64,000 nucleotides of DNA, from the UHGV virus genome UHGV-0033085. The stretch is one strand, 5' to 3'. This DNA is from a virus. This document shows, piece by piece, positions 3,683 through 60,697 of this stretch. The notes under the pieces are model-generated. The model was not told the origin of the DNA. It worked only from the letters and a program-made list of their open reading frames with translations, and did not search any database. The translations under genes were made by a program, and so were the position numbers. Positions within the stretch are counted from its first letter, which is position 1; each line of letters starts with the position of its first letter.

Positions 3683-4938
3683 TGGCAATCCCGTCCTCGC
3701 TCAGTCTTGTGCAACTGCATTCTGGACAGATGAAAGTCTTCCAGTCTCCGCATCGATTTAAAGTTGTTTGTGCTGGTCGACGCTGGGGAAAATCCCGGTT
3801 GTCGATCTCCACTATTATTCGTGCGGCGGCAAAGGAAAAAAAGCAAAGGGTCTGGTATGTCGCTCCTACTTACCAGATGGCTCGCCAGATTTTGTGGGAC
3901 GATCTACAGGAAGTTCTGCCTCGTAAGTGGGTTAGGAAAAAGAACGACACCACGATGACAATCGTGTTGAAGAACGGTTCGGAGATCGCCCTCAAAGGTG
4001 CTGATAAGCCTGACACTCTGCGCGGCGTAGCGTTGCATTTTGTAGTGCTTGATGAATTTCAGGATATGAAGGCTGACACCTGGTACAAGGTGTTACGACC
4101 TACTCTTTCATCGACACGCGGCGGTGCACTGATCATTGGTACGCCAAAAGGCTTCTCGGAATTTCACAAACTGTGGACTATAGGCCAGAACGTAGAGCTG
4201 CAAAGAAAGGGACAGTGGAAGAGCTGGCAGTTTGTAACTGCCGATTCTCCGTTTGTGCCTACGGCGGAAATTGAAGCTGCTAAGAACGATATGGACCCGA
4301 AATCGTTCGCTCAGGAGTACCTGGCGAGCTTTGAGAACATGTCCGGGCGCGTTTACTACCCGTTCGATCGTAACGTGCATGTAAAACCGCTTCAGTTCAA
4401 CCCTCGGTTGCCTATATGGGTAGGGCAGGACTTCAACATTGACCCGATGTCTTCAGTAATTTTGCAACCTCAGCCAAATGGTGAGCTATGGGCAATTGAT
4501 GAATTGGTGCTCTTTTCCTCTAACACGGCAGAGGTTTGTGATGAGCTTGAGAGACGCTTCTGGCGCTGGAAATCACAGATAACGGTATTTCCAGATCCGG
4601 CAGGTGCTTATCGCCAACATGCTCGCGGGGAGTCTGACGTCGACATTTTCAAAGAGAAGGGATTCTTACGTGTCGATTATTCGAAAAAGCACCCGCCAAT
4701 TGCGGATCGTGTTAATGCTGTTAACCGAATGCTGATGACCGCATCTGGAGATATCCGGTTGTATATCGATCCGAAGTGCAAGCATTTGATTGATTCACTG
4801 GAAAAAGTCATCTACAAGCCTGGAACACGAGATATGGATAAGACAGGTGGCATTGAGCATAGTGCAGACGCATTGGGCTATCCAGTACATCGTAGGTATC
4901 CAGTCAAAAACCGTGTTATTCTTGGTGGTTCTCGATAG
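3682..4938 (+). CDS. terminase large subunit
   Basis: Walker A CAGRRWGKS, Walker B VVLDEFQD, C-terminal nuclease-like region. Confidence 0.85.
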   Translation: MAIPSSLSLVQLHSGQMKVFQSPHRFKVVCAGRRWGKSRLSISTIIRAAAKEKKQRVWYVAPTYQMARQILWDDLQEVLPRKWVRKKNDTTMTIVLKNGSEIALKGADKPDTLRGVALHFVVLDEFQDMKADTWYKVLRPTLSSTRGGALIIGTPKGFSEFHKLWTIGQNVELQRKGQWKSWQFVTADSPFVPTAEIEAAKNDMDPKSFAQEYLASFENMSGRVYYPFDRNVHVKPLQFNPRLPIWVGQDFNIDPMSSVILQPQPNGELWAIDELVLFSSNTAEVCDELERRFWRWKSQITVFPDPAGAYRQHARGESDVDIFKEKGFLRVDYSKKHPPIADRVNAVNRMLMTASGDIRLYIDPKCKHLIDSLEKVIYKPGTRDMDKTGGIEHSADALGYPVHRRYPVKNRVILGGSR

Positions 4939-4964
4939 GTAGGTAATTATCTAAGGTTATTCAA

Positions 4965-6539
4965 ATGGAATTGAACGATAAACAAATTAAGGATCTGGTG
5001 GCGCGACGCCACCCGGAATACGAAAAGAAAAAAGAACATTGGGACTTCCTCGCCAGCACTTATGCTGGCGGGCGTGGTTGGTTTACAGACAATATCTTTC
5101 GTTACTTTAAAGAGGGAGATCAGGAGTTTAAGGAGCGAGTTGAGCGTGCTTATCGTTTCAACCACACTCGTGAGGTGGTAAACCTCATCAACAAATATCT
5201 CTTTAAAGAAGACATTCATAGAAATATCGAAGAGGCACCAGAGCAGATCCGCAATTTCTGGAAACGTGCGACTCGCCAGAATGCCTCTATTGACTCATTT
5301 ATGGCCGCTATTGATTTGCAGTCGTCTATTTACGGTCGCATATGGGTTGTTGTCGATAGCACGATGAGTGGTGATGTTGAGTCAGTAGCTGACGAGAAAA
5401 AGAAAGATGCTCGCGCCTACGCCTACTGGATTTCACCTCAGCAAATGCTGGATGTGGCATGGGACGACGACGGGAATATGTTGTGGGCGTTAATTGTGGA
5501 AGTCGCTCGTGATGACGCAGATCCTTTTACTTCTACAGGTCAGGAATACCAACGTTATCGTCTGTGGACACAAAACGAGTGGTATCTGTTCCGTGAGGAA
5601 GTGAAGAAGGGCGCTGGTGGAGCAGGTCGCCGTCAGGCAAAAGTTATTTTAGAGGATAGCGGTGAGCATAATCTCGGCGTAGTTCCTGTGTTTCCTGTTG
5701 ATTGTATTGGAGAAAGTGAATCACCGTATTTCAGCCCATCGTTGATCGATGATATCGCTTATCTTGATCGTGCGGTTGCAAACTATCTGTCAAACCTTGA
5801 TGCCATTATTCAGGATCAGACATTTAGCCAGTTGGCTATACCGGTACAGTCGCTTTTACCTGGTGATGAAAACCACACTAAAGTGCTTGAAATGGGCACA
5901 AAGCGAGTCTTCACCTACGATTCTGAAGGTGGAAACCAGCCGTTTTATCTGTCACCAGACCCGAAACAAGCTCAGATGATCATCACTACAATTAAGACGG
6001 TGATTAACGAAATCTACCATTCAGTTGGTGTAGCTGGTGAGCGAACGAAGCAGGACAACGCACAGGGAATCGATAATTCATCTGGTGCCGCAAAAATGTA
6101 TGACTTCCAGCGTGTAAATAGCTTGCTTGTCACAAAAGCAGAGCGTCTGGAAAGGGCTGAACGCCAAATCATGCTACTGGTTGCGAAATGGATGGGGGTA
6201 GATCTGGACGAAGACCACTCTTTAATTGCGTATCCAGAAAGTTTCGATATTCGTGGCCTTACTGATGAATTTTCTGTTGCCGAGAAACTGTCATTACTTC
6301 AGGCACCGGACTCTGTACGTCGTCACCAGATGGAAATGCTTATTGAGAAGATTTTCCCGAACATTACTGAGGCGATGAAAAAGGAATTTGATAAAGATCT
6401 CTTGAATTTTCCTCCAAAAAATGATCTAAATACCCTTGAAAATAAGTCAGTACTTACTTATGATCGTGGTGCAGCCCAAGAAAGCGGGCAAGATCAACCC
6501 CGAGGGAATGGGGACTCATCTACTCAAGAGAACGAGTGA
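4965..6539 (+). CDS. portal protein (putative)
   Basis: 524-aa ORF directly after TerL; position and size typical of portal. Confidence 0.6.
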   Translation: MELNDKQIKDLVARRHPEYEKKKEHWDFLASTYAGGRGWFTDNIFRYFKEGDQEFKERVERAYRFNHTREVVNLINKYLFKEDIHRNIEEAPEQIRNFWKRATRQNASIDSFMAAIDLQSSIYGRIWVVVDSTMSGDVESVADEKKKDARAYAYWISPQQMLDVAWDDDGNMLWALIVEVARDDADPFTSTGQEYQRYRLWTQNEWYLFREEVKKGAGGAGRRQAKVILEDSGEHNLGVVPVFPVDCIGESESPYFSPSLIDDIAYLDRAVANYLSNLDAIIQDQTFSQLAIPVQSLLPGDENHTKVLEMGTKRVFTYDSEGGNQPFYLSPDPKQAQMIITTIKTVINEIYHSVGVAGERTKQDNAQGIDNSSGAAKMYDFQRVNSLLVTKAERLERAERQIMLLVAKWMGVDLDEDHSLIAYPESFDIRGLTDEFSVAEKLSLLQAPDSVRRHQMEMLIEKIFPNITEAMKKEFDKDLLNFPPKNDLNTLENKSVLTYDRGAAQESGQDQPRGNGDSSTQENE

Positions 6540-6560
6540 TAAGTAACAAAAGGAATTTTT

Positions 6561-8352: not shown

Positions 8353-8383
8353 TCAGTGCAGTAGATAAGTAATTATCTATGTT

Positions 8384-8414
8384 AAAGGGTGGGCTATACG
8401 CCCACCCTTTTTGT
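8384..8414 (+). terminator. rho-independent terminator after capsid gene
   Basis: AAAGGGTGGGC-loop-GCCCACCCTTT followed by TTTTG. Confidence 0.65.
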
Positions 8415-11931: not shown

Positions 11932-11939
11932 GTTAATTG

Positions 11940-11955
11940 GTAAGTATATACTTAC
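11940..11955. promoter_or_regulatory. perfect 16-bp palindrome GTAAGTATATACTTAC (member of dispersed motif family)
   Basis: Self-complementary 16-mer 50 bp upstream of major tail gene. Confidence 0.45.
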
Positions 11956-18417: not shown

Positions 18418-18499
18418 GCATCTGGATAAGTAAGTACTAATTTACTATTATTGTGGCGCTGACAGGATGTTAGCGCCTACTTATTTCAAGGATGAAACA

Positions 18500-25311: not shown

Positions 25312-25403
25312 TGTAGAAAAAAATATTTATATCGGTAAAAATAAGTAGGTACATACTTAATGGTGGGCAAGGATAGCCCACCAAATCAAGGAGCATATTC
25401 AAC

Positions 25404-35129: not shown

Positions 35130-35245
35130 TCTTTTAAAAGACACCACCAGAACAACTCCCTTCCGTTTCCACTTCCAAAAACTGCCACCAGTCGCTATCA
35201 TCCGCTCATTGTGATAAGTAAGTAACTACCTACTAGGTGAGCCAC

Positions 35246-35986: not shown

Positions 35987-36029
35987 CTAATACTAGAAAA
36001 CAATTTGTTTAAAAAACAAAGGAAAGCAC

Positions 36030-37370: not shown

Positions 37371-37451
37371 AAAATAAGCGTGGAGAACACCTCCACGCTT
37401 GATTCATTGGTGAAACAACTTTTCTTTTGCCAAACCACAAAAGAAAAACAC

Positions 37452-38633: not shown

Positions 38634-38708
38634 CAAGTGCCGCCAAAATAAGTAGATGATTACTTATCTTTCTGTAAGAATACTTTCATCTGTTAGCTAG
38701 GAGTTGGT

Positions 38709-39485
38709 ATGAAAGACGAAATTCACAAATTAGCCTGCGACATCATTGATAAAACTGGTTTAGAAATCAGCGAGAGCAATCGACTAGACATCATTGAAAA
38801 AGCGGTAAAAACAGCAATGGATCATATCGCCACTCGTTTGGTTGAGATCCCGCTACCAGGGCTACCTTATCTGAAAGTTGAGTTACACGTATGGGGTGAA
38901 CCTTCTTGTGCACGACGTTCTGCATTAGTTGTTTTTATTAGCAAAGAAAACCCGCTCAGTCTTAAAGTGCAGGTTGGAGCATGGCTTGATGGCAGAGTGA
39001 TCTACACAAATACCGTTTTTTGTCTTTCAAACGACGAAACTATTGAAGCGGCCATTCAAGAAGCAGTTCTAGCAATGCGCAGCAGCGGTTTGATGAAGAA
39101 TAACTACGAAGAGTACTTGCGTTCGATAAGTGGTGAAAAGACATTATCTCTGAAAGCAGATTTCGTTACCCCGAAAAATCTGTTGGAAGTCTTGCTTAAT
39201 AAAGGGGCTAATGATGCCGTAAATGTAATCAGAGAGAGTGAGTATGCGTCTCTTTGCGACATGTGCAAAAGCCAGTTGGATCTGGTGCATATCGTTATTG
39301 ATGCTGGGAAGGCATGTGATGGCGTAATGGCGGAATTTGCTTGGAAGGTGGTCAGGATTGCTAACGAATTACCGATGATAGAGCAAGAGGCTAAATCATA
39401 CGCCACCAATCATATCACAGAGCTTCTTGCCCCCTATCGCTTAGAAAGCAATCAGCGCAAGATGATTAGCTGGGGAAGTTGGTAA
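38709..39485 (+). CDS. hypothetical protein
   Basis: 258-aa ORF with RBS. Confidence 0.35.
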   Translation: MKDEIHKLACDIIDKTGLEISESNRLDIIEKAVKTAMDHIATRLVEIPLPGLPYLKVELHVWGEPSCARRSALVVFISKENPLSLKVQVGAWLDGRVIYTNTVFCLSNDETIEAAIQEAVLAMRSSGLMKNNYEEYLRSISGEKTLSLKADFVTPKNLLEVLLNKGANDAVNVIRESEYASLCDMCKSQLDLVHIVIDAGKACDGVMAEFAWKVVRIANELPMIEQEAKSYATNHITELLAPYRLESNQRKMISWGSW

Positions 39486-39540
39486 TCTCTCCGCGCGTCG
39501 TTTTTTACGCAAATAACGATAGGTAAGTACAAGATTATTT

Positions 39541-40023
39541 ATGGCGGTAGTTGTGAAAGCTGATTTGTCAAAAATCCCCTCTATTTCAGGAAATAATGGT
39601 TATTCACTTCGTTGTGAGGAAGTAAAGATAAACGGTGAGTCGGCATATTGCAGCTACTCCGTTTGCCAGCACACCATTCTTGCCTTCAAAGAAAACCGTC
39701 TTCCTCGAACTTCATTCCAGTCGTGCGCAACCGCTATCAAAGCAGGCAAATGCAAGGCGTTAAAAATGATGGTTGAAGAGATTCGTAAAGGAGAATCTCT
39801 GTATTTCGAAGATATGACCGCGCTCATTAAGGAGGTTGAAGAACAGAATAAACAAGCCAGAACTTTAAAACGAAAACGTGACAGTGTAACGATTAATAGC
39901 ATGGTTAAGAAGAGCACCACATCACAAACAGCGATCACTGACGTGTATGCGGCGTTGCTTGAAGAAACAACAAAAGAAACACATGAGCAAATCGATCAAC
40001 ATATGGAGGTAAAACAACAATGA
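39541..40023 (+). CDS. hypothetical protein
   Basis: 160-aa ORF. Confidence 0.35.
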   Translation: MAVVVKADLSKIPSISGNNGYSLRCEEVKINGESAYCSYSVCQHTILAFKENRLPRTSFQSCATAIKAGKCKALKMMVEEIRKGESLYFEDMTALIKEVEEQNKQARTLKRKRDSVTINSMVKKSTTSQTAITDVYAALLEETTKETHEQIDQHMEVKQQ

Positions 40024-41342
40024 AAAAGTTGATCGCACTTAAGCATAAGCTGGACGAAATGAAAGCTATGGGCACCAATGCAAAAAAAGAGGCATTGGCC
40101 AACATGGATGACTTTGAACAAAGCATGGTTTCATTGATGCTCAACCCTTTCATCCGTTTTGGGGTAAAGAAATACAAAGTGGCAGAGCCGCTTAGTGAGT
40201 CCATCCCAAGTGACGAAAAAGCCATTGATGTACTGAATAAGCTGGCCTCTCGCGAGCTAACGGGGAACGCAGCAATAGCAGCTGTTGAGTCTATCGTGGC
40301 GTCAATGTGCGCCGATGGGCAGGACGTGTTCCGTCGTTTCCTCTTAAAAGACCCGAAAGCTGGCGTTGGGATTAGCCTATGCAACAAGGTTTTTGAAAAT
40401 CCCATTCCGAAATTCGAGGTGCAGCTGGCGTCACCGTATAAAGAAAAAGGCGACAAATACCCCTTCAAGCCAAATCCTAAAGCAAAATGGCCGATGATTG
40501 GCAGTCTTAAGCTCGATGGTTTGCGAGTAATTTGCGAGGTTATTGTTGACGAGGAAGAGGTTAACTTCCTTTCTCGTACTGGTAATCCAATCACGTCTCT
40601 CGATCACCTAAAGCCAGCCATGCTCGAATTAGGCAAACTTTCAGGCCACAAACACATCTTCTTCGATGGTGAAGGAACTGCCGGTTCATTTAACCAGTCC
40701 GTATCTGCATTGCGCAAAAAGAACGTGCAGGCAATTGGCGCTATTTATCATGTTTTCGACTTCTTCCTACCGGAATGGCGAGCACAGGCTAAATCCAAAG
40801 AGTATGCAAAGACAGGTATGAAGCTGAAAGAGCGCCTGGCTATGCTGGTGGCGTTGTTCAAAAACGATCGCAGTGAAGGCTACACACAAGACATTCACCT
40901 GCATCCGTTCTATATCATCCATAGCCACGAAGACTTCATCGAACGCTTCATGAAACGCCTGGACGATAACGAAGAAGGGGAGATGGGCAAAGATCCGAAC
41001 TCTGTTTACGAGTTTAAACGTACCCGCAGCTGGTGGAAGTTAAAAGACGAAGATTCAGAAGATGGTGAAATTATCGACTTTGAGCCGGGCGACCCGGACT
41101 CTGGTTTTGCCAACACACTTGGAAAAATTGTTATTCGTCTTGAAAACGGCGTCATCGTTCGTGCGAGCGGCATTAAGCATAAATATCTGGATGAGATCTG
41201 GAACAACAAAGAGAAGTACCGTGGTCGTATTGTCGAGGTTCATTGTCACGAGAAAACACCGGACGGCAGCTTACGCCACCCACGACTGAAATGGCCGCGT
41301 TGCTTACGCGATACAGAAGATCGAATCGGAGATAAAGAATGA
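40020..41342 (+). CDS. ATP-dependent DNA ligase
   Basis: Adenylation motif I KLDGLR. Confidence 0.65.
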   Translation: MKKLIALKHKLDEMKAMGTNAKKEALANMDDFEQSMVSLMLNPFIRFGVKKYKVAEPLSESIPSDEKAIDVLNKLASRELTGNAAIAAVESIVASMCADGQDVFRRFLLKDPKAGVGISLCNKVFENPIPKFEVQLASPYKEKGDKYPFKPNPKAKWPMIGSLKLDGLRVICEVIVDEEEVNFLSRTGNPITSLDHLKPAMLELGKLSGHKHIFFDGEGTAGSFNQSVSALRKKNVQAIGAIYHVFDFFLPEWRAQAKSKEYAKTGMKLKERLAMLVALFKNDRSEGYTQDIHLHPFYIIHSHEDFIERFMKRLDDNEEGEMGKDPNSVYEFKRTRSWWKLKDEDSEDGEIIDFEPGDPDSGFANTLGKIVIRLENGVIVRASGIKHKYLDEIWNNKEKYRGRIVEVHCHEKTPDGSLRHPRLKWPRCLRDTEDRIGDKE

Positions 41343-42163: not shown

Positions 42164-42185
42164 ATAAGTATTTACTTACTTATCT
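42164..42185. promoter_or_regulatory. palindromic motif GATAAGTATTTACTTACTTATC (dispersed motif family)
   Basis: Arms GATAAGTA / TACTTATC at start of tRNA/noncoding island. Confidence 0.4.
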
Positions 42186-42931
42186 TTTGTGTATAAGATG
42201 ACTTTGTTTTCGTTGAGACGCGACTGTTTGAACTTAAATACAAGTGCAAACGAAGAAGTCTATCTGGCAGTAGCCTAATAAGCCAAACACCAGCGAGGTC
42301 AGTTTCCAGCCTCGTTACCGAAATGGGACACACTGAGCGAGTGTGATTGCAGAACGCAGGAGGGAACATTCATGTTCCCTCCGATGAAGTAACAGAATGG
42401 GCGGTTGGTATATTTTCAACTCCATATGACTCCCGGATTCTTAGCCACTGACCGCCCATCCTGTTACGTCATTTTGTTCAATTATGTCGTTTATACTGGG
42501 TTAAAAAGCGGCGACGTAGCCCGGCTGGTATGGTTAGCCAGCACACAACGTTGAGGCCATTACATTTTTATCAATTCTAAGGTTCTATTCACAGAGATAC
42601 CGGCGAGCGTTGATATGTAACATGTTGGGCAAACATTCAATCGGAGTAGTGGCCTCAACGTTGTGAAGACAGGATTGTTGTGTAGGTTTAACCACTGTTG
42701 CCATTGGTGCCTGTTTTCACAACAAATGATTCCATACATCACATTGTATAAATTACAAAGTAGGTGCTGTCCTCAGAAACATCATCTACTTAAAGATTTT
42801 GCCTTCTACTATTGAGCGAAGTCGAAAGCGTCTGGCACTAACGAAAAGTGCAAGTAGCGGTGCGTTTCCTGGCAGAAACTAAACCGTCGCGATTGGCACT
42901 GTTGAGTAATAAATACTGGCAGTGCTGAATT

Positions 42932-43006
42932 GATGGTGTAGCTCAGCGGTAGAGCAGTTGGCTGTTAACCAACTGGTCGGTGGTTCGAATCCACCCACCA
43001 TCGCCA
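42932..43006 (+). tRNA. tRNA-Asn (anticodon GTT)
   Basis: Cloverleaf by hand: acceptor GATGGTG/CACCATC, anticodon loop CTGTTAA, T-loop GGTTCGAATCC, encoded CCA. Confidence 0.8.
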
Positions 43007-43011
43007 ATTTA

Positions 43012-43098
43012 GGGGAGTTAGTCCGTAGAGGTAGCGGTGTAGACTGTAAATCTACTGTCATGGCGACTCGGGTGGTTCGACTCCATCACTCCCCACCA
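43012..43098 (+). tRNA. tRNA-Tyr (anticodon GTA), long variable arm
   Basis: Acceptor GGGGAGT/ACTCCCC, anticodon arm GTAGA-CTGTAAA-TCTAC, T-loop GGTTCGACTCC, CCA. Confidence 0.75.
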
Positions 43099-43102
43099 AA
43101 TT

Positions 43103-43178
43103 GCCGGTTTAGCTCAGTTGGTAGAGCGCCTGCCTTGTAAGCAGGATGTCAGCGGTTCGAGTCCGTTAACCGGCACCA
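43103..43178 (+). tRNA. tRNA-Thr (anticodon TGT)
   Basis: Acceptor GCCGGTT/AACCGGC, anticodon arm CCTGC-CTTGTAA-GCAGG, T-loop GGTTCGAGTCC, CCA. Confidence 0.8.
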
Positions 43179-43541
43179 ACACAACAGGTAAGTGCATTGG
43201 GCGAATCGGCGATACTGACCCACAAGCCCGTAAATCGATAGAGTCAGACCAGTGCTCTTACCGTTGTGAGGAAGTGCAGCTCTTTGAGGCAACCAGAAGA
43301 TAAGCATCTGGCTTCACAACACAACGATAAGATCATTACGGTTAATCGTCGTTCATGTGCACAATGACTGGTCGAAAGGTAGTGATCTTACCGTTGTGGT
43401 GGATTCGCAGACTGATGCGATAGCTTTCTTGGATGTTAGGGAAATGCGGCCGCAAATCTTCCCTTTCGCGAGCGGTGATCGTCCGTAGTCCTAATTGGCT
43501 GCACCGTATGCCGGAGATTCAGTACCGGCCACCACAACGGC

Positions 43542-43628
43542 CGGAGAGTAGGGAGCATGGTGCTCAAGCGGTCTTGAAAACCGTCCCATTGCGCAAGCGA
43601 TGATGGTTCGATTCCATTACTCTCCGCC
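43542..43628 (+). tRNA. tRNA-Ser (anticodon TGA), long variable arm
   Basis: Acceptor GGAGAGT/ACTCTCC, anticodon arm GCGGT-CTTGAAA-ACCGT, T-loop GGTTCGATTCC, CCA. Confidence 0.7.
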
Positions 43629-43851
43629 AGACACAGCGTTGAGCGGTTTGGCCTTTTAATCACCCAGATTAAGACTCCGCTAACATAAACCAGACCGCTC
43701 AACGCTGTGATAGACAATTACGGCAGACGTTCTTAACCATAGCTTGCTAACATCCTAGCAACACTTTTTTTCAGCGCAAAATTCAAAGGGGCTTCGGCCA
43801 CTTTTTTTGCAACTGAAAGAGTCAAGTCTACGAACTTTGTAGGAAGAAATA

Positions 43852-44202
43852 ATGACCAGCAAAGAGAACACACCACTAAAAGTCACCCCTGAACACATTG
43901 AACAACTCATTCAAAGTGAACATTATTTCACTGCATATGATGCCAGCCACGGGGATAACTTCATCTCTGTTTACAATTCAAAAACAGATATCGACAAAGG
44001 TCATGAGTCGTTAAAACTCTTAACGTTCTGCGTTATGGTTCTCAAAAATGGATATACCGTAACGGGAAAATCTGCGTGCGTAAGACCAGAAATCTTCAAT
44101 TTTGATGTTGGTCGCGAGTACGCTCGAAAAGATGCTATCGATCAAATCTGGCCCCTGGAAGGCTATCTCCTGAAGCAAAAGTGGCATGAGGCAAAGCAAT
44201 GA
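43852..44202 (+). CDS. hypothetical protein
   Basis: 116-aa ORF, ATGA-coupled to downstream glutaredoxin-like frame. Confidence 0.4.
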   Translation: MTSKENTPLKVTPEHIEQLIQSEHYFTAYDASHGDNFISVYNSKTDIDKGHESLKLLTFCVMVLKNGYTVTGKSACVRPEIFNFDVGREYARKDAIDQIWPLEGYLLKQKWHEAKQ

Positions 44203-44444
44203 CGATCACTATCTACGGATGAGATAACTGCTCATACTGCAAACGTGCGGTCGAGCTGGCGAAGCAACTAAAGGGACATGGCTACGGTGATTATGAGTAC
44301 ATCGACATCACCACTGCCGGTATCAACAAGGAAAAACTAAGTGAAATTGTTGGTAAACCGGTAGAGACTATCCCCCAAGTGCTGATCGATGGCCAACCGA
44401 TTGGCGGATACACAGAACTGGCTGCATACGTCAGCACCCTCTGA
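44199..44444 (+). pseudogene. glutaredoxin-like gene (T4 NrdC-type CxxC) with in-frame TGA at codon 8
   Basis: Frame reads MTITIYG-TGA-DNCSYCKRAVELAK...IDGQPIGGYTELAAY; TGA at 44220-44222; no ATG downstream. Confidence 0.5.
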
Positions 44445-44448
44445 TTTT

Positions 44449-44475
44449 AACGGCTCACAGGAGCCGTTTTTATTC
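44449..44475 (+). terminator. rho-independent terminator
   Basis: CGGCTC-ACAG-GAGCCG followed by TTTTTATT. Confidence 0.6.
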
Positions 44476-44524
44476 CCACCAAACTCACTCCCGTTTCCCT
44501 TAAAATTCAAAAAACAACGTCAAA

Positions 44525-44555
44525 ATGATTCCATACCTACTATGTATGGAATCAT
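44525..44555. other. 31-bp perfect inverted-repeat site (12-7-12), candidate recombinase target
   Basis: ATGATTCCATAC-CTACTAT-GTATGGAATCAT, 100 bp upstream of tyrosine recombinase gene. Confidence 0.45.
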
Positions 44556-44654
44556 TACTGAAAATGAGTTACTTTTACTCTTGATCCTATAAGAATCTAT
44601 GCCTAATATACTGTTTACTTATACAGTGCATCGGCGTAACTCGGTGATTGTCAT

Positions 44655-45758
44655 ATGAAAAATAGCTTTGACAGAGCACGCGCTGCGGAGAACACCTCAA
44701 AAGAGGCGATTGAGTATCTCGAAAGAGCATCTCAAATGCAGGCCGTTATGATCTCCCAGGTCAGCAATGACATGAGATTCTCGGACGCATTCATGTTATT
44801 CACTCGCTTATCTCTGCTGATAACAAGACGTCGGCCAGAGATCGCTGTTCATTGTATTTTGATACATGTTTTGCCGCACATTGCCGATGTAAAAGTAAGT
44901 GACATTAATAGGTTCATGGTGAACCAACTGGTCAACCCACTAATACTGGATGGCAAAATTGTTATGGGCCGCCGCGTTTTCTCTCTGATGAAGCAGTTCC
45001 TTAGCTGGTGCGCCTTCCAGGGGATGATAGACGTGTCACCGTTAAACGATATGTCACTTAACAAAGTTGCCGGTGGCGCAAAGCCCACACCTCGCGAGCG
45101 GAAGCTGACCGACGCAGAGGTATGGGTGTTCTGGAATATATGGGACTACTTCAATGTGTGCGCTGGTACAAAATGGGCGGCCAGGCTGTGTCTTGTATCC
45201 GCAAGACGACCTGACGAAGTACTGCGTGCTAAAAAAAGTGAGTTCAATCTTAAGCGTGGGGTTTGGAATCAAGGCAAGAGGAACAAATCTGCCCGTGAGC
45301 ATTCGCTGCCTTTAAGCACATTAATGCGCACATGTATTGAAGAGTTGTTCGAATACGGTAAAGGCAGCCAGTGGCTCGTGCCTTCGAATAAAAAAATCGG
45401 GAAAGACCTTCCTATGTCTAAAGTGGCAATAGCCCAGGCATTACGTCGTATTCTGGAACGACCAGAACTGATGGAGCTTGAGCCATTTACACCCCGAGAC
45501 TTGCGCCGTACTGCGCGTAGTTACTTCCCAGCATTAGACATAAGCCAGGAGGTATCACGCAAAATCATGAACCACAGTCTTGAGGGGATAGATCGAGTCT
45601 ACGACCGGCACGATTATATGGACGAGATGCGAGACGCCTTAGAAAGTTTCTCGACGTACATCGCATCAATCGTAGAGCAACCGGATTTAGACGAAATTGA
45701 CCACAAATTCAAGGGAGATCGTCTATCAACAGAGCTTATTCGTGTAAATTTTTCATAG
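44655..45758 (+). CDS. tyrosine site-specific recombinase (integrase/resolvase family)
   Basis: C-terminal catalytic pattern: R in LRRTARSY, H in MNHS, Y in RVYDRHDY. Confidence 0.75.
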   Translation: MKNSFDRARAAENTSKEAIEYLERASQMQAVMISQVSNDMRFSDAFMLFTRLSLLITRRRPEIAVHCILIHVLPHIADVKVSDINRFMVNQLVNPLILDGKIVMGRRVFSLMKQFLSWCAFQGMIDVSPLNDMSLNKVAGGAKPTPRERKLTDAEVWVFWNIWDYFNVCAGTKWAARLCLVSARRPDEVLRAKKSEFNLKRGVWNQGKRNKSAREHSLPLSTLMRTCIEELFEYGKGSQWLVPSNKKIGKDLPMSKVAIAQALRRILERPELMELEPFTPRDLRRTARSYFPALDISQEVSRKIMNHSLEGIDRVYDRHDYMDEMRDALESFSTYIASIVEQPDLDEIDHKFKGDRLSTELIRVNFS

Positions 45759-46139
45759 AGACTTTATGGCCTCAACAACCTTTTGTGATGCGCCTTTCTC
45801 TTTACCGAATCGCTCGTTATATGCAGCAAGAACCTGTTTTTCGTCCTCGTTAAGAGGAGCGGTGCCTTCTTTGTATAAAAATGCTGCGAGTTCAGGTTGG
45901 CGTTCTTCCAGCACCATCATCATAAGACGACTTGGCTCAATACCCAGCGCCAGCGCCAACGGACGAACCTTATCGATAGGCAAAGGAATTTTGCCACTTT
46001 TAATTAAAGAAAGGTTGTTGGCATTTTTATAACCAATAAGTCTGGCTATTTGGGCCTGACTCATAGGTGAGGATTCAATCAGCCCTGCGATAAAAGCAGC
46101 ATAGCGACTTTCTATAAATTCAATCTTGTTGTCAGACAT
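45753..46139 (-). CDS. XRE-family HTH transcriptional regulator (candidate repressor)
   Basis: HTH segment MSQAQIARLIGYKNANNLSLIKSGK; convergent with recombinase. Confidence 0.6.
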   Translation of the reverse strand: MSDNKIEFIESRYAAFIAGLIESSPMSQAQIARLIGYKNANNLSLIKSGKIPLPIDKVRPLALALGIEPSRLMMMVLEERQPELAAFLYKEGTAPLNEDEKQVLAAYNERFGKEKGASQKVVEAIKSL

Positions 46140-46170
46140 TGTTACAACCTTTGCGCGTTCAATTCTCTCT

Positions 46171-46184
46171 GGTAAGTGCTTACC
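46171..46184. promoter_or_regulatory. palindrome GGTAAGTGCTTACC in regulator upstream region
   Basis: Perfect 6-bp arms; same core as dispersed GTAAGTA motif family. Confidence 0.4.
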
Positions 46185-46389
46185 GATATTACATCAAAGG
46201 TTAGGGTTGTAAAGCTATTATCATTTTTTCGATAGGCACTTAAAAGACCGGTTAAAGGCCATTGCACGGAGAAAAATTAGCCCAAAACAGGTAAGAAAAT
46301 TAACTTGCATATGATATGAATGTATTCAGTATTGATATAAATTTTAGTAGTATTCCTTACCATAGTATAAGTTAGAATGGATTGATTGA

Positions 46390-46602
46390 ATGAACACCAC
46401 TATTTCCAGCCTAATCGCTCTTGAGATCGGACACGTACAGAAATTAGCTGATGAGTGTGTAGCTGACATCCTCACCGATCTACCGAATGAGCAGATTCAG
46501 GTTGGTGTGAATGACACAACTGGCTTTATATTCGAACTTAACAACAAACGCTTCACGCTTCTCAATATCGGCTCCGGGTCTTTAGCCGTCAGAATCTGTT
46601 AA
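46390..46602 (+). CDS. hypothetical protein
   Basis: 70-aa ORF followed by 9-bp stem hairpin CTGCGCGAA...TTCGCGCAG. Confidence 0.3.
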   Translation: MNTTISSLIALEIGHVQKLADECVADILTDLPNEQIQVGVNDTTGFIFELNNKRFTLLNIGSGSLAVRIC

Positions 46603-46700
46603 CCCCTCTTCTCCCTGCGCGAATGGCTTAGTTCCCTGTTCGCGCAGTGCTACATTAAACACAGTAGTAAATAATTTGTTTTCATAACAAAGGATTAGCC

Positions 46701-48809: not shown

Positions 48810-48904
48810 ACAAAACAGCCTTAACGATAAGTAACCACTTACGATATATAATGATATATTTATATAAGAAGTTGAACGCTCATTAGAGAACAAAGGAAAA
48901 ACGC

Positions 48905-50320: not shown

Positions 50321-52684
50321 ATGAAGGCACTGATGGTTCGAACTGACTTCTCACTTGGGGAGTCGGCTCTAAAAGCAGAAAACGCGGTGAAGATTGCCAG
50401 AGAAGCTGGCTACACCGCTGTAATTTCAGCAGATAGCATGAATATTGCGAGCGTTATTCCACTACAACGTGCCGCTGGTGACGACATGGCGGTTATTTGT
50501 GGTGTGAAACTAAACATTGTTGATGATCCCACATACGAGCACCGGGCTAAACTTGCTAAAGAATCTATGAGATGTATGGAATCATTAGAGCGAGGACGTA
50601 ACTACTCGTTTACCGCTCTAATTAAAAATGAGAAAGGATATCGCGACATCTGCGAACTAATGACGGCGGCCAACACACGAGAACAGTTCTACTTTGTACC
50701 GCGTCTCTCGCTCGAACAGTTGGTTTCTACATATGCCAAAGGCAACATCATCCTGCTTACTTCCGACATCGGTAGCGTGTTCCAACGCAACGATTTTGCA
50801 AAAATCATAAGCACACTGATTACAGCGGGTGGAAAAGACAACTTCTATAGTGTGGTTTATCCGCACCCTACCCCATTCTACGACCAGATTAACGTCCGGG
50901 CGATGAAAGTCGCCAGCGCATTGAAAATAGAGCCAGTGGCGTTCTATCCCGCTTATTACGAATCGATCGACGATGCAGACATTAAAGACATTGCGCACAT
51001 GGTTACGAACAACATCAAAATCGACCAGCCGCATCGTCTGCGTATCCCCCACCAGCGAGATAACGCCGTCAATGGTCGCCGCCATCTCCTTGAGGCGCTT
51101 AAAGCCTTCTCCGTTCGCATGGATGTGCCGGTAACAGCTGCAATGGCCTCAACAACGCAGGATACCATTATCGATGCCTGCACATGGCGCTGGCATGAAT
51201 TGCCGCCAGCACTGCCAAAGATGGCAGACGACGAGCCTGCAACGCTGATGAAACTGGCTGTTGCAGGGCTGCGTAAACGTCTTACCACAAAAGAGTTTGG
51301 CTACACACCACCTGCTTCTGAGAACAGGGTTTATGTTGAGCGGCTAAAGTACGAAATGGACACGCTGACTCGCCTGGGATTCTGTGGTTACTTCCTGATG
51401 GTGCGCGATCTGATGAATCATAGTCGTGAAACTGGCATTCCCGTTGGGCCTGGTCGTGGTTCCTCTGCCGGTTCTCTGGTGGCGTGGTGCATAGGCATAA
51501 CCAACGTCGACCCAATCCGTCACGGTCTTCTGTTTGAGCGTTTCATCAACCCTGAGCGTCTCGACTTGCCGGATGCGGACTTGGACTTCAGCCAGGCACG
51601 TCGCCATGAGGTGATCGAGTATCTGAATGAACGCTACGGCGAAGATTACGTTGCAGGCATTCCGAACTTCACCTACCTGGGCGCAGCCTCTGCACTACGT
51701 GATACCGCTCGTATTTATGGTGTGGAGTCCGCAGATATGGCGGTATCAAAAGAGCTGAAGAACGTCGAGGATGATAGCCTTCCATTGGAGGAGCTGCGCG
51801 AACAACTGGCAAGTCTCGACAAATACGCAACAAAATATCCTGATGCATTCAATGCAGCCTGCAAGTTACAAAGCCTTATGCGTGGCTTTGGTAGACATGC
51901 GGCAGGGATGATCGTAGCAGGTGTTCCTCTGACAGAACGTACACCGGTTGAACGCCGTGGTGACGCGCGTTGTATCGCATTTGACAAGCGTTACTGCGAG
52001 GCTATGGGCCTAATTAAGCTGGACGTACTCGGTCTGGCAACTCTCGATTTGCTCGATAGTGCAAAACGCTACATAAAAGAGAACACAGGTGAAGATATCA
52101 ATCTTGATGCCATTTCTCTTGAAGATCGCAAGGTGCTGGATGGTTTTGCTGCAGGGTATACACAGGGCGTATTCCAGCTTGAATCAGGCCCAATGCGCAA
52201 GCTGCTTAAAGATTTAGGTGGTGGAATTGAGCCAATGAGCTTTAAAACGGTCGTCGCTACAACTGCGCTCTTCCGACCTGGCCCGATTCAATCCGGCATG
52301 TTGGACGATTATGTGTCCGTGGCCAAAGGCTTCATGGCCCCACATTCCTTACACCCAATGCTGGACGACATCTCTCGCGACACAAACGGAGTTCTGATTT
52401 ATCAGGAACAGATCATGGCTGCTACGCGAATCTTGGCGGGGTTCTCAATGGCGGAAGCAGACTCGGTCAGGAAAGCGATCGGGAAAAAAGATATGGAGAA
52501 AATGAAATCCATTGGCGGCGACTTCATTAAGCGAGCGGAGGAAGGCTGGGTGACAGTGTCACTGGATGATGGTTCTACGAGAAAAATCCATAAAGCAGCA
52601 CGCCTACTTTGTGCTGATGGTGAGCGTCGCACTTATGCCGAAGCAATGGCAATAAATGCCGACATAACGAGCTTCGATATTTGA
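50321..52684 (+). CDS. dnaE: DNA polymerase III alpha (DnaE-type), N-terminal fragment; last about 45 codons non-homologous
   Basis: PHP-like N-terminus; core motif GPGRGSSAGSLVAWCIGITNVDP, LLFERFINPER, DADLDF; homology ends near 52546. Confidence 0.8.
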   Translation: MKALMVRTDFSLGESALKAENAVKIAREAGYTAVISADSMNIASVIPLQRAAGDDMAVICGVKLNIVDDPTYEHRAKLAKESMRCMESLERGRNYSFTALIKNEKGYRDICELMTAANTREQFYFVPRLSLEQLVSTYAKGNIILLTSDIGSVFQRNDFAKIISTLITAGGKDNFYSVVYPHPTPFYDQINVRAMKVASALKIEPVAFYPAYYESIDDADIKDIAHMVTNNIKIDQPHRLRIPHQRDNAVNGRRHLLEALKAFSVRMDVPVTAAMASTTQDTIIDACTWRWHELPPALPKMADDEPATLMKLAVAGLRKRLTTKEFGYTPPASENRVYVERLKYEMDTLTRLGFCGYFLMVRDLMNHSRETGIPVGPGRGSSAGSLVAWCIGITNVDPIRHGLLFERFINPERLDLPDADLDFSQARRHEVIEYLNERYGEDYVAGIPNFTYLGAASALRDTARIYGVESADMAVSKELKNVEDDSLPLEELREQLASLDKYATKYPDAFNAACKLQSLMRGFGRHAAGMIVAGVPLTERTPVERRGDARCIAFDKRYCEAMGLIKLDVLGLATLDLLDSAKRYIKENTGEDINLDAISLEDRKVLDGFAAGYTQGVFQLESGPMRKLLKDLGGGIEPMSFKTVVATTALFRPGPIQSGMLDDYVSVAKGFMAPHSLHPMLDDISRDTNGVLIYQEQIMAATRILAGFSMAEADSVRKAIGKKDMEKMKSIGGDFIKRAEEGWVTVSLDDGSTRKIHKAARLLCADGERRTYAEAMAINADITSFDI

Positions 52685-52732
52685 GAATTAATTTATAAGA
52701 TAAGAAAACAATTTGTTTAGTGAGTCTTAGAA

Positions 52733-53467
52733 ATGCCGAGTACGAAGTACAAAATCACAGAAGAATGGTTACGTCAGCGTTACATGGTTGACCTGATGAG
52801 AAAAGAAGACATTGCCGCCGAAGCTGGTTGCAGCAAGGCAAATATTGACCGCTTATTAGCCAAATGGGGGATCAGGCGCGGAAGCGCGCGGATCTCCGCT
52901 ACCCCAGCCTGGAATCGTGGCAAAAACAAAAATAATGACGAACGTATGAAGCGTCTCTCCGAAGCCCGGACTGGCACTGGCAACCCTATGTATGGGAAAA
53001 CCTCGTGGAATGCCGGTCTGCGTGCTGATATCGATGAGCGAGTGGCCACCGTTTCGAAAAAGCTAACCGGCAGAACAATCCGCGCGGAGACGAAGGAAAA
53101 GCTGGCGGCTGCCAAACGTGGAAAGATCGGAGAAGAAGCGAACAACTACAAAGGTGGCATCATCGTAAAAACCAACGGCTACATGATGCAGCTGGTTGGT
53201 AACAATGGCGTTTCGCAATACGAATACGTTCATCGATTGATAGCGAAAGAACGTCTCGGTCGGGAGCTACGTGACGATGAACATGTCCACCATATTAACC
53301 GCGATACGATAGATAACGCCCCTGGGAATCTTGTAGCACTTCCAGAAGACGCCCACATTCGCCTGCATAGTGAAATGCGTGAAGAGATATGGAGCTGGGA
53401 GCGCCAACGGAACTGGCTGGCCTCCAATGGGTATGAGTTCGTGAAGATTGATGAGGTGACTGCATGA
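52733..53467 (+). CDS. HNH homing endonuclease (NUMOD-like repeats + HNH)
   Basis: HNH motif HHINRDTIDNAPGNLVALPEDAHIRLH; repeated GKxxWNxG / KRLSEARTG-type motifs. Confidence 0.8.
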   Translation: MPSTKYKITEEWLRQRYMVDLMRKEDIAAEAGCSKANIDRLLAKWGIRRGSARISATPAWNRGKNKNNDERMKRLSEARTGTGNPMYGKTSWNAGLRADIDERVATVSKKLTGRTIRAETKEKLAAAKRGKIGEEANNYKGGIIVKTNGYMMQLVGNNGVSQYEYVHRLIAKERLGRELRDDEHVHHINRDTIDNAPGNLVALPEDAHIRLHSEMREEIWSWERQRNWLASNGYEFVKIDEVTA

Positions 53468-54633
53468 AAATTACCGGTGTTGTCGAAGAGAGCAATGGCC
53501 TGACGCACGAACGAGCCGAAGAAATCTGGAATATGTTTGAGAAATCCGGCGCGTATGCCTTCAACAAATCACACTCTGTTGCTTACTCCTTAATCAGTTA
53601 TCAATCTATGTGGTTGAAAACTCATTATCCCGCGGAGTTCTTCGCTGCTGCTCTCACTATTCTTGGCGAAGATAAACACCAGGGGCTGGTTAAAGATGCG
53701 CTGACCTATGGTATTCGCGTATTGCCACCAGACGTTAACGTGTCATCTAACCGAATCGAGATCCGCACGCTTGAAGATGGCAGCCAGGTGCTGTATGCGC
53801 CCTTCTCTGCTGTGAAAGGGTGTTCTGAGAATGGCTGCCAAGCCATCATGAGAGCGCGAGAAAAAGTTGGCGGCAAATTCGAGTCACTGGCGCAATTCGA
53901 AGAAGCTGTCGAGAAACGTGCCTGTAATAGTCGAGTGCGCGAATCGCTGCAAAAAGTAGGGGCGTTTGCATCCATCGAGCCAGGTAGTCTGCCAGCAACT
54001 GATCCAGAGCGCCTACGCGACCAGGCTGAATTGATGGGAAACCTTGTCATAGACGCAGTTAAAGCCTCACGTCCGTTTGAGATGAACCCCAAACGTTCGG
54101 CTGAGATTAACGTACTCATGACGCGGATGGCGGCTGAAATGGGCTTAGGTGATGAACTAATCCGCCCCAGCATTGGTATTAAGCCGAAAATCATGATCAT
54201 TCTGGACAATGCGAACGGCAATGATGCTCGAACCGGTTACTTTATGGAGAACGGATACGACGATTTTAAGGCCAAGCTGTTGACGGCTGGGGATTTGCGC
54301 ATGGGCGATCTCTATGTCACAGGCGTTTGCAAAAAGGTGAAAGACAAAGAAAAGGACTACACCAAAGACGAGATCGGCCAGTTCACCGACTTTATGCGTG
54401 AAGAGATCAATCTGGTGCGCCCGACCTATGTGCTGACGTGTGGTAGCCGGGCAACGGCATTGTTTAACAACAAAAACAAGCCATCCGATTTGGTCGGCAG
54501 GAAGGAGTATCTTCCAGACCTTGACGTTACTGTCTTTTACGGGTTTAACCCCAACATTCTTTACTTCAGACCTGAAGAGGGAGAACGACTAGAAGCGATA
54601 TTAGCCGACGTAGCAGAAACTATTAAGTCGTGA
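53464..54633 (+). CDS. dnaE: DNA polymerase III alpha (DnaE-type), C-terminal fragment
   Basis: Motif YAFNKSHSVAYSLISYQSMWLKTHYPAEFFAA; own ATG with GAGGTG upstream. Confidence 0.8.
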   Translation: MKITGVVEESNGLTHERAEEIWNMFEKSGAYAFNKSHSVAYSLISYQSMWLKTHYPAEFFAAALTILGEDKHQGLVKDALTYGIRVLPPDVNVSSNRIEIRTLEDGSQVLYAPFSAVKGCSENGCQAIMRAREKVGGKFESLAQFEEAVEKRACNSRVRESLQKVGAFASIEPGSLPATDPERLRDQAELMGNLVIDAVKASRPFEMNPKRSAEINVLMTRMAAEMGLGDELIRPSIGIKPKIMIILDNANGNDARTGYFMENGYDDFKAKLLTAGDLRMGDLYVTGVCKKVKDKEKDYTKDEIGQFTDFMREEINLVRPTYVLTCGSRATALFNNKNKPSDLVGRKEYLPDLDVTVFYGFNPNILYFRPEEGERLEAILADVAETIKS

Positions 54634-55190: not shown

Positions 55191-55307
55191 TTTTTGATAG
55201 ATAATAAGTAAGTACTGATCTATCATTTAACAGCTCGAAAGAGCCACGAATGAACGAAAGCCCAACGCGCATAGCGCCATCGGCCAAATCACAACAAGGA
55301 GAAACAC

Positions 55308-58687: not shown

Positions 58688-58714
58688 AAGGCGTCCACAG
58701 GACGCCTTTTTTAT
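58688..58714 (+). terminator. rho-independent terminator
   Basis: AAGGCGTCC-ACAG-GACGCCTT followed by TTTTTATC. Confidence 0.7.
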
Positions 58715-58775
58715 CTCTTGAAAATATATAAGTACTTACTTATTATTTTCGCATAACAACCACATAGGAAAACAC

Positions 58776-59853: not shown

Positions 59854-59901
59854 CGCAATTATCTTATTAAGAAAACAATTTGTTTAAAAGGATAAGAAAA
59901 C

Positions 59902-60327
59902 ATGACAGTTATTAAGAAACTCTACGATGCCGCAAACGTGGCTCTGGATGTTATTGATGATGAAGTAGCAAAAGGCTTTCCTGAACCTGATTGGGCGCAT
60001 CAGCTACGAAACGCTATCGCCGAAATGAATCCACCAGATCCGACCACCGACGAGACAGACTGGCAGCGATTTATCCGTATGTACGCTCAGGAAATAGGTC
60101 CAACGCCAACGGCAGAGCAAGCAATGCTGCTGAAATACTTCAAAGAGGCGGGAGAGGATTTACCAATTGATGACTCAGCATATTGGTTCCACTGCACATG
60201 GCGTAAGTATGACGTGATATTCACACAAGGCATGGGGAGCAAAGATATGGTTGTGTGGCATCTACTCCATATAGACACAGCCGTTGACAGAGTTATTGAA
60301 CAGTTTTTCCCTAAACAAGAAGATTGA
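59902..60327 (+). CDS. hypothetical protein
   Basis: 141-aa ORF. Confidence 0.35.
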   Translation: MTVIKKLYDAANVALDVIDDEVAKGFPEPDWAHQLRNAIAEMNPPDPTTDETDWQRFIRMYAQEIGPTPTAEQAMLLKYFKEAGEDLPIDDSAYWFHCTWRKYDVIFTQGMGSKDMVVWHLLHIDTAVDRVIEQFFPKQED

Positions 60328-60382
60328 TCGCCTATTCATAACTAACAAAATAAGTAAACACTAACCACAAAAGGAAAAACAC

Positions 60383-60658
60383 ATGAGAGTTTTAGTTCGA
60401 ATCGTTACCAGCACTGTCTATGACGTGTTTCCGCTTTTTATGGTCAAAGCCGATGGCCTTAACGACGAAGAAACTGACGCGCTGATCCAGCGTATTCTCG
60501 TTGAATATACAGGTCATGACGCTGATTCAGTGATGGTTGATGATGATGGTGTTTGTTGGCATAACGGCAACTGTTGGTACGTAGAAGAGACTCAACAAAT
60601 CAGTGATGAAGATGCCGCACATCTTGAGCGTATTTTAAGCATCAGCACTTTTGAGTGA
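60383..60658 (+). CDS. hypothetical protein
   Basis: 91-aa ORF, CACATG start context. Confidence 0.35.
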   Translation: MRVLVRIVTSTVYDVFPLFMVKADGLNDEETDALIQRILVEYTGHDADSVMVDDDGVCWHNGNCWYVEETQQISDEDAAHLERILSISTFE

Positions 60659-60697
60659 GTTTACAGTAAAATTTATATAAGTTAGTATCTACCTATC

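Follow-up and report, generated by a model that had tools for sequence, protein, structure and literature searches.

The 64,000-nt stretch of the virus genome UHGV-0033085 analysed here (the window) belongs to an SSU5/Cyrano-like phage-plasmid and carries a dispersed family of 20-bp inverted repeats (dyads). Judged from their sequence, these dyads appear to be real protein-binding palindromes shared across the family, and most likely they serve a global lysogeny repressor as its operators. We propose that one DNA-binding protein, at least dimeric, uses them to silence the lytic units, and that an XRE-type protein encoded in the window is the most likely binder; the probability of this reading is put at about one half. 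Binding, repression and the identity of the binder are what we infer from the motif, its statistics, conservation and placement, and from gene expression in a near-identical lysogen. By megablast, the window is 95% identical to Escherichia phage CMS-2020a, 94-97% identical to PhiR41_1 and Cyrano (pLF82), and approximately 81% identical to Salmonella phage SSU5. Gene assignments were transferred from the Cyrano annotation using a coordinate offset of about +2915.

A dispersed dyad in the gaps between lytic genes

A preliminary description of this DNA had reported a recurrent motif in intergenic gaps, and counts against shuffled sequence bore this out. With at most one mismatch, ATAAGTARGTA matched 13 times in the window versus 1.08 expected, and exact ATAAGTA occurred 23 times versus 5.5, far more often than by chance. 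All 12 occurrences of the 8-mer ATAAGTAA fell in intergenic DNA, which makes up 10.8% of the sequence; coding DNA had none. On listing the Cyrano and SSU5 sites, the recurring GATAAGTAAGTA was recognized as the left arm of a 20-bp dyad with the consensus ATArGTAAGT/ACTTACyTAT (ATARGTAAGTACTTACYTAT; the slash marks the dyad axis), or 26 bp when the weaker symmetric atg/cat flanks are counted. Its half-site is ATAAGTAAGT, and one example reads ATAGGTAAGTACTTACCTAT. Scanning for the 20-bp dyad at up to 5 mismatches gave 21 raw matches in the window versus 0.25 in dinucleotide shuffles, 31 versus 0.8 in Cyrano and 36 versus 0.3 in SSU5. After merging overlapping matches and removing two 55-bp palindromes, 15 window sites were retained, 14 of them mostly in non-coding DNA (9.5% of the window; binomial P = 7e-14). 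There are about 30 dyads per genome, roughly 15 of which lie in the window, corresponding to a density of approximately 1 per 3.5 kb. Many copies of one site, far above chance and largely in non-coding DNA, are what a dispersed-operator regulon contains.

Thirteen of the 16 instances listed earlier have 4 mismatches or fewer. Those at 48827 and 60350 are weak or decayed, with orthologues in relatives that score 3-5 mismatches, and the one at 54739 is a half-site (Table 1). The best site of the window, at 6442-6461, was absent from that list. What had been called a related palindrome upstream of the XRE gene (46171-46184) turned out to be a family member with 5 mismatches. The perfect 16-bp palindrome at 11940-11955 (GTAAGTATATACTTAC) also belongs to the family, being an alternative register of the site at 11936 with half-sites 4 bp further apart. 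The inner palindrome of the 55-bp elements had been counted as an instance as well; these elements form a separate family. Their centre, ATAAGTAAcTTAT, contains dyad-like half-sites at closer spacing.

The dyads occupy short gaps heading or separating the lytic units for packaging, head, tail, lysis, replication and recombination, and the plasmid-maintenance genes are without them. Four sites (4935, in a 26-bp gap, 8361, 18426 and 39519) lie in short gaps within operons, away from promoters, and the dyads at 4935, 39519 and 60677 either stop 1-10 bp short of a start codon or overlap a ribosome-binding site. The upstream arm is the better kept (16 versus 31 mismatches), a difference that is not significant (sign test p = 0.27) and to which the apparent + strand bias of the motif can be traced.

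Dyads were found at matching junctions in the window, Cyrano, SSU5 and Klebsiella pJN2-26, where the sequences drift while the consensus is kept. The common junctions are TerL/portal, the portal 3' end, the position after the capsid gene and those before the tail tube, tail L, fibre and holin genes, followed by the positions before the replication module, the tRNAs, CobS and the gp32-like single-stranded DNA-binding protein (SSB), and others. The site at 4935 has orthologues in Cyrano, SSU5, Klebsiella (perfect) and Acinetobacter. Three perfect 20-mers are present in pJN2-26 and 25 dyad sites in Klebsiella oxytoca pCAV1752-111. In Yersinia pestis pMT1, 17 sites were counted; they are confined to the 68-kb backbone that resembles SSU5, the acquired 28 kb having none. 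A more distant relative, the Acinetobacter plasmid NZ_CP143347 (TerL 59% identical), carries about 34 copies of the variant TATTAGTAAGCGCTTACTAATA, among them one in the TerL/portal gap and one between the capsid stop codon and a terminator, so that the order of dyad then terminator seen at 8361 is repeated there. In IMG/VR, the perfect 20-mer was present in about 22 contigs, mostly of 60-111 kb. In GTDB representative genomes it gave just 13 single, chance-like matches in unrelated metagenome-assembled genomes. The motif strings had no match in the searchable literature, where an earlier description may nevertheless exist, and no description of the control of lysis and lysogeny in the SSU5-like group was found there.

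Promoters, transcripts and RNA folds at the dyads

Consensus-level promoter hexamers, conserved in four lineages, were located at varying offsets from the dyads. The dyad lies over the spacer and/or -10 at 6442, 55204 and 58724, making up at 6442 the spacer and -10 of TTGAAA(6436)-17-TATGAT(6464), and over the -10 and start at 60677. It covers the -35 at 38648 and 42164, is placed further upstream at 30466 (conserved TGnTATAAA 19-27 bp downstream of the dyad), and is found downstream of the start at 35214 (conserved TATCAT 13 bp upstream of the dyad). Such a variable offset is operator-like; promoter elements and activator sites behave otherwise.

A phage-specific promoter element, the other function suggested in the preliminary description, did not hold up. 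The best + strand sigma-70 hits do fall on the dyads, with the -35 at positions -6 to -1, the spacer at 0-16 and the -10 at 17-22. A sigma-70 promoter in this fixed register was rejected, as at least 9 of 12 matches were reached at just 4 of the 15 window sites (2-4 sites per genome in four genomes), forward and reverse promoter scores were alike (Wilcoxon p = 0.16, 0.61, 0.66 and 0.08 in the four genomes) and placement varies. For the enteric elements, testing the -10 by itself for asymmetry likewise gave a negative result, and the TATcat flank is the mirror image of atgATA.

These results also bear on a reading in which the dyad would be the recognition element of activator-dependent phage promoters, the activator recruiting RNA polymerase to a TATnAT at positions 17-22. 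Its model is the late promoters of P1, where a palindrome near -22 is bound by Lpa. In its favour, T17, A18 and T22 are frequent in the dyads, TAnnnT occupies positions 17-22 in 10 of 14 window sites, the best + strand promoter-like matches coincide with the dyads in one register, many Acinetobacter right arms read CTATAAT, and RNA is increased after several dyads under partial induction (see below). Such a reading is nevertheless quite unlikely by our estimate: besides the equal forward and reverse scores and the mirrored flanks, transcripts begun in the fixed register would start inside or right at the start codon in the case of 39519 and 60677 and, at 4935, would leave out the conserved ribosome-binding site, terminator hairpins directly follow some dyads and RNA falls there, and at the XRE promoter a dyad covers the start site, where a bound protein would repress. 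A phage-encoded sigma factor was considered and discarded: one is present in the Acinetobacter relative, without a homologue in the enteric elements. The gene concerned (NZ_CP143347, 22792-23457) encodes a sigma-70-family protein just after CobS, and no enteric homologue was detectable.

Expression was taken from RNA-seq data (PMC9928086 S1 Table) on the Cyrano lysogen E. coli LF82, in which background is approximately 9.8 normalised reads. In the lysogen, the first genes after dyads were at background (5-22), with the exception of CYRAN_34 (44). Clearly expressed genes included kacAT (344 and 592), the parA operon (50-89), int (50), the XRE gene (96 versus 9.8, about 10 times background), hicAB (141 and 294) and repA (133). 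These genes have no canonical dyads; the XRE gene alone has a dyad-type site, namely the weaker core site. In macrophage samples taken at 6 h, representing partial induction, RNA rose at genes following dyads with predicted promoters (Table 1) and fell at hairpin-adjacent dyads (log2 change -2.7 at CYRAN_6, -2.1 at CYRAN_17 and -2.4 at CYRAN_35). Some dyads thus coincide with real promoters and others do not, as would be expected of binding sites more than of promoters. By far the strongest signal from the element in the LF82 lysogen (7084 versus 9.8) belonged to CYRAN_43 (40268-40822, - strand; approximately window 43183-43737), which overlaps the tRNA cluster on the opposite strand, so that the signal may stem from tRNA or another small RNA and not from the open reading frame (ORF).

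Since the dyads are placed in transcribed intergenic gaps, some over ribosome-binding sites, they might also act as RNA hairpins in processing, stability or translational control. The pattern of change argues strongly against this: among 92 sites the arms deviate independently, with 236 positions changed in one arm and 18 in both, 9 of the 18 being complementary, and across genera the sequence is kept, not the pairing. Predicted hairpins are weak (-0.7 to -4.3 kcal/mol), with z-scores near 0 for 5 of the 6 tested, and Rfam contained no family for the dyads, only tRNAs being matched. Lacking an excess of compensatory change, stable folds and an Rfam match, a structured RNA element was rejected, and a function as RNA hairpins is considered extremely unlikely.

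The XRE-type protein and other candidate binders

According to the operator reading, one sequence-specific protein, at least dimeric, would bind the 20-26 bp dyads and block RNA polymerase. At some sites it would do so by occluding the spacer/-10, the -35 or the start site of sigma-70 promoters, and at others by forming a roadblock next to hairpins. As a result, a lytic programme of about 100 kb would stay silent while the element replicates as a plasmid, and the XRE protein would regulate its own synthesis via the weaker core site on its promoter. The preliminary description had likewise suggested operators for a global repressor, with the XRE protein as its candidate. The operator part of that suggestion fits the data above; for XRE as the putative binder, the evidence that follows is circumstantial.

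The promoter predicted for the XRE gene from consensus is TTTACA(46213)-16-TAATAT(46186) on the - strand, and the dyad core begins 2 nt after the -10 and covers the start region. Counting all lineages with such a site, there are seven. The core is kept at the XRE promoter in E. coli, K. pneumoniae, Y. pestis, S. Typhi and Cronobacter; the upstream region contains two sites in K. oxytoca, and the Acinetobacter site is located further upstream. XRE is therefore a repressor-like gene that is expressed in lysogeny and has a site at its own promoter. In PLSDB it is present in essentially all plasmid forms, with XRE/TerL counts per genus of 348/345 in Klebsiella, 230/208 in Escherichia, 92/93 in Enterobacter, 63/62 in Yersinia and 49/50 in Salmonella. 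The region of its recognition helix, NANN(L/I)SLIKSG(K/R), is kept in those lineages that retain the dyad, and in Acinetobacter both are different. Co-variation in K. oxytoca, with an XRE protein 47% identical, was uninformative because recognition helix and dyad are both conserved there. The protein matched Pfam HTH_19 with 18.9 bits, below the cut-off of 30.2, and PHROG 8 ('transcriptional regulator') with E = 6.6e-12, and had no sequence match in PDB. A single-sequence model (predicted local distance difference test score, pLDDT, 73) had as best folds Stl, a Salmonella phage repressor, C.AhdI, HipB and lambda cI, all with E > 0.1; in this model of moderate confidence, the fold appears lambda-repressor/Cro-like.

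SSU5, described as virulent (PMC5427195), is without the whole segment that holds the integrase gene, the XRE gene and a 70-aa gene (SSU5 approximately 42597-42760 versus window 43300-46700). Its tRNA/CobT junction was found in none of 822 related plasmids, all of which carry an insert there, and its nearest relatives are 92-96% identical. The loss of XRE therefore looks recent, so the intact dyads of SSU5 are not evidence against the XRE protein, and the absence of the gene from SSU5 is weakened as counter-evidence. Loss of the int-XRE segment is probably also the reason why SSU5 is virulent.

Several points weigh against the operator reading or against XRE as its binder. Protein binding to the dyads is itself something we infer. 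The excellent dyads that SSU5 retains without XRE would be expected as well if another protein were the binder. The autoregulatory site of XRE is off-consensus in its outer arms (5 mismatches), and no second dyad serves the divergent gene at 46390, so the arrangement is not a classical cI/cro switch. The contiguous 20-26 bp of GTAAG-like pentamers at 4-bp offset resemble the target of a TetR-type dimer of dimers (SlmA, QacR) more than a Cro/C1 operator. The promoter assignments are consensus matches. The lysogen silences all lytic genes regardless of dyads, so that the expression data are consistent with the reading and not specific to it. Finally, the existence of a second dispersed palindrome family implies that more than one regulator is at work. 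A search for a small regulator conserved in all five lineages found none in the core set of 33 proteins.

Two proteins with a ParB_N domain, encoded upstream of the terminase genes, were considered as binders, one of which would be global regulator and DNA organiser at once, in the manner of KorB, which binds 12 dispersed palindromes on RK2. They are present in every lineage, SSU5 and Acinetobacter included, and a dyad is located directly upstream of their operon in all lineages. This position is, however, unspecific, since about 30 operons have a dyad, and ParB_N is the only domain detected in these proteins. In the Cyrano lysogen their genes are silent (5.0 and 9.5 versus a background of 9.8), so that they cannot maintain silencing and were ruled out as the lysogenic binder; binding of the dyads by one of them is judged highly unlikely.

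A host protein, not named in the preliminary description, was considered on the basis of site similarity. Here the dyads would be sites for the nucleoid-occlusion factor SlmA (TetR family, two dimers), recruited by the element as a host-supplied promoter silencer, for protection or positioning of the plasmid versus the septum, or as a division block on phage DNA amplification. The E. coli SlmA consensus is 5'-AAGTAAGTGAGCGCTCACTTACGT-3' with the half-site GTAAGTGAGC, bound as two dimers (PMC4423959), and the dyad half-site is identical to it at 7 of 10 positions, the other 3 being transitions (P of at least 7/10 = 0.0035, one comparison). In SlmA-binding sites (SBSs), the critical bases are G, T, A and G at positions 1, 2, 4 and 5, position 3 tolerates either purine (Kd ~60 nM after a change from G to A, versus ~50 nM) and position 6 either pyrimidine (PMC3020112). 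The dyad core GTAAGT/ACTTAC and the Acinetobacter core GTAAGC/GCTTAC satisfy all of these preferences, and a four-pentamer architecture is common to dyad and SBS. A promoter carrying an SBS can be repressed by SlmA, as seen with a Psbs::lacZ reporter (PMC3573117), and an SlmA- or TetR-like protein encoded by the elements was not found by tblastn or phmmer. Dyads are also dense (about 1 per 3.5 kb) compared with the 24-52 SBSs on a 4.6-Mb chromosome.

The individual sites fit SlmA less well than the consensus does. The 12-bp SBS core GTRAGY/RCTYAC is found in both halves of 1 of 15 window dyads (the site at the XRE promoter) and 6 of 27 Klebsiella dyads, and in one half of 9 of the 15. Compared with the 20-bp SBS consensus GTAAGTGAGCGCTCACTTAC, each half of the dyad consensus agrees at 7 of 10 positions and differs by transitions at the other 3, yet A outnumbers G by 159 to 5 at SBS position 3, where SlmA prefers G or is indifferent, which implies a binder that can tell A from G. 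At the outermost position the dyads have A (133) more often than the G (32) of the SBS consensus, the K. oxytoca right arms TTTAC break the critical G, and chromosomal SBSs avoid promoter regions whereas the dyads are almost exclusively intergenic. The host of SSU5 has SlmA and SSU5 is lytic in it, so SlmA alone cannot silence the element. To our knowledge, no SlmA has been described in Acinetobacter, whose elements keep the dyads. Recruitment of SlmA by the dyads is accordingly rated as rather unlikely. A version in which about 30 SlmA-site mimics recruit the host factor as silencer, septum guard or DNA-encoded division block, with XRE competing or cooperating, is rated as unlikely. The resemblance to the SlmA site is still the most novel element of the finding: if functional, it would tie a mobile element to the checkpoint on division of its host, and the searchable literature contained neither a description of such a link nor a paper connecting SlmA with SSU5-like elements.

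Gene map, further repeats and comparison with known systems

The positions of the dyads, the genes and the other repeats of the window are collected in Table 1.

Table 1. Dyads, genes and other repeats in the window. Mismatches refer to the 20-bp consensus; the log2 column gives the RNA rise at the next Cyrano gene in the 6-h macrophage samples. RBS, ribosome-binding site; HTH, helix-turn-helix.
Feature	Position	Strand	Mismatches	Log2 RNA rise	Context
Dyad	4935-4954		4		Fills gap from TerL stop to portal RBS
Dyad	6442-6461		1 (best in window)	+1.2 (CYRAN_4)	Inside 3' end of portal gene
Dyad	8361-8380		4		Between major capsid stop codon and terminator hairpin 8387-8410
Dyad	11936-11955		4	+2.5 (CYRAN_12)	Before tail tube gene; overlaps TTGAAT(11923)-18-TATACT(11952)
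Dyad	18426-18445		3		Followed by hairpin 18455-18477; before minor tail protein L
Dyad	25341-25360		3		Before tail fibre gene
Dyad	30466-30485		3		Begins on stop codon of upstream gene; before holin gene
Dyad	35214-35233		3		Just before first gene of helicase/primase module
Dyad	38648-38667		4	+2.6 (CYRAN_34)	Conserved extended -10 TGTAAGAAT (38673-38681) about 5-6 bp downstream
Dyad	39519-39538		4 (left arm intact)		Preceded by T-run terminator; ends 2 bp before start codon
Dyad	42164-42183		2		Followed by TATAAGAT; head of tRNA region
Dyad-like	46168-46187		5		Inner 14 bp perfect (GGTAAGTGCTTACC); XRE promoter
Dyad, weak	48827-48846		6		Before CobS; TATAAT directly after
Left half-site only	54739		9
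Dyad	55204-55223		2		Within TAGATA-17-TATCAT; before gp32-like SSB gene
Dyad	58724-58743		2	+3.6 (CYRAN_56)	Within TTGAAA(58718)-17-TATTAT(58746); directly after terminator 58688-58708
Dyad, decayed	60350-60369		6		Orthologues 3-4 mismatches
Dyad	60677-60696		3	+3.9 (CYRAN_60)	Overlaps -10 of conserved TTTACA-17-TAGTAT; ends 1 bp before start codon
Second palindrome family	2970-3011, 33066-33082, 35996-36012, 46667-46683, 52704-52720, 59871-59887
55-bp palindrome	2878-2932				Upstream of TerS
55-bp palindrome	35075-35129				Head of replication module
Iteron-like repeats	61462-61950, 63058-63166				12 copies flanking repA
Terminase	3050-4938				Followed by portal, capsid and tail genes
Tail fibre	25404
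Lysis genes	from 30536
kacAT toxin-antitoxin		-			After lysis genes in order
parA	33116
GIY-YIG ORF	34196-34963	-			Between partition genes and replication module
Helicase, primase, ligase	36030-41342
tRNAs	42932-43629
Integrase (int)	44655				Next in order: XRE-type gene
XRE/Cro-C1-type HTH protein	45753-46139	-			128 aa; candidate cognate repressor
CobT, CobS, Pol III alpha, then UvsY, gp32-like SSB, RecA					In this order after XRE gene
Pol III alpha, first ORF	50321-52684				PHP, NTPase and finger domains
HNH/NUMOD3 homing endonuclease	52733-53467				Inserted between the Pol III alpha ORFs
Pol III alpha, second ORF	53464-54633				HHH_6
repA	61950-63164	-

Pol III alpha, a single 3.5-kb gene in Cyrano and SSU5, is split in the window by a homing-endonuclease gene, much as it is in the Acinetobacter relative, where the split involves a NUMOD4 gene. 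A further ORF, with a nuclease domain of the LEM-3-like GIY-YIG type, likely encodes another homing or mobile nuclease.

Three other repeats were noted. A second palindrome family, GAAAACAAnTTGTTT(AA), gave 14 strand-hits at up to 2 mismatches versus 1.03 expected and is located approximately 30-50 bp upstream of start codons, in gaps without the ATAAGTAAGT dyad; the genes that follow are those for TerS, ParA, the DnaB helicase, CobT and the HNH protein and the one at 59902. This family is also abundant in Klebsiella pJN2-26 (8-mer GAAAACAA, 18 copies) and may be the site of a second regulator. The two 55-bp palindromes (CCTGCTTCTGTATATATAAATAATAAGTAAnTTATTAAATATATACGGAAGCAGG) are 98% identical, have further copies in Cyrano (approximately 31155, 78080 and 108340), SSU5 and Klebsiella, and could be module boundaries, bidirectional terminators or origins. 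The iteron-like repeat ACCGCTGACAGCATAC presumably represents the plasmid origin and copy-control sites.

Phage-plasmids of the SSU5 type are widespread: in PLSDB, a TerL homologue is carried by more than 1,000 plasmids, and in about 800 of these it is at least 80% identical to the window TerL. The group takes in Y. pestis pMT1 and Salmonella Typhi pHCM2, and according to the literature resistance-gene carriers in Klebsiella and E. coli belong to it as well. The present proposal would give this group one conserved operator, with about 30 sites, and a named candidate repressor.

One of the closest known systems is phage-plasmid P1, whose C1 repressor reportedly acts at many operators over about 100 kb, the repressor gene itself being controlled. 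As here, the element is a plasmid prophage with dispersed operators overlapping promoters at varying positions. The P1 operators differ in being asymmetric 17-mers of unrelated sequence, C1 is not of the XRE type, and the late genes of P1 are separately under Lpa, whereas here the same dyad occurs in early-type and late-type modules alike.

The stoperators of mycobacteriophages L5 and Bxb1, said to be bound by gp71 at some 24-30 sites in short intergenic gaps of early and late operons, are similar in that several dyads lie over stop codons and off promoters, consistent with roadblock silencing. The four intra-operon sites away from promoters (4935, 8361, 18426 and 39519) are of this kind. Stoperators are 13 bp long, asymmetric and strictly orientation-dependent, whereas the dyads are palindromic, with no significant polarity, and so are not asymmetric sites in one orientation.

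In Streptomyces phage phiC31, the c repressor is said to bind conserved inverted repeats (CIRs), highly conserved palindromic operators of which one is linked to autoregulation. Both CIRs and dyads are intergenic, occur genome-wide, and often directly follow a terminator and precede a gene cluster. The two differ in sequence, in repressor family and in host, and CIRs are confined to the early region.

SBSs are 20-bp palindromes built almost identically to the dyads, whose core agrees with the permissive GTRAGY/RCTYAC. They are chromosomal, sparse (24-52), placed outside promoter regions and act on FtsZ, whereas the dyads nearly never have G at SBS position 3 and mostly have one degenerate arm. 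The KorB operators (OB) of the IncP-1 plasmid RK2 are likewise plasmid-dispersed palindromes at variable distance from promoters, served by one global repressor; KorB, which is homologous to ParB, is made in the plasmid state, whereas the ParB_N proteins here are silent in lysogens. Taken by analogy, the dyads most likely represent the same kind of system as the P1 C1 operators, the L5 stoperators and the phiC31 CIRs, with a new sequence and in a new host family.

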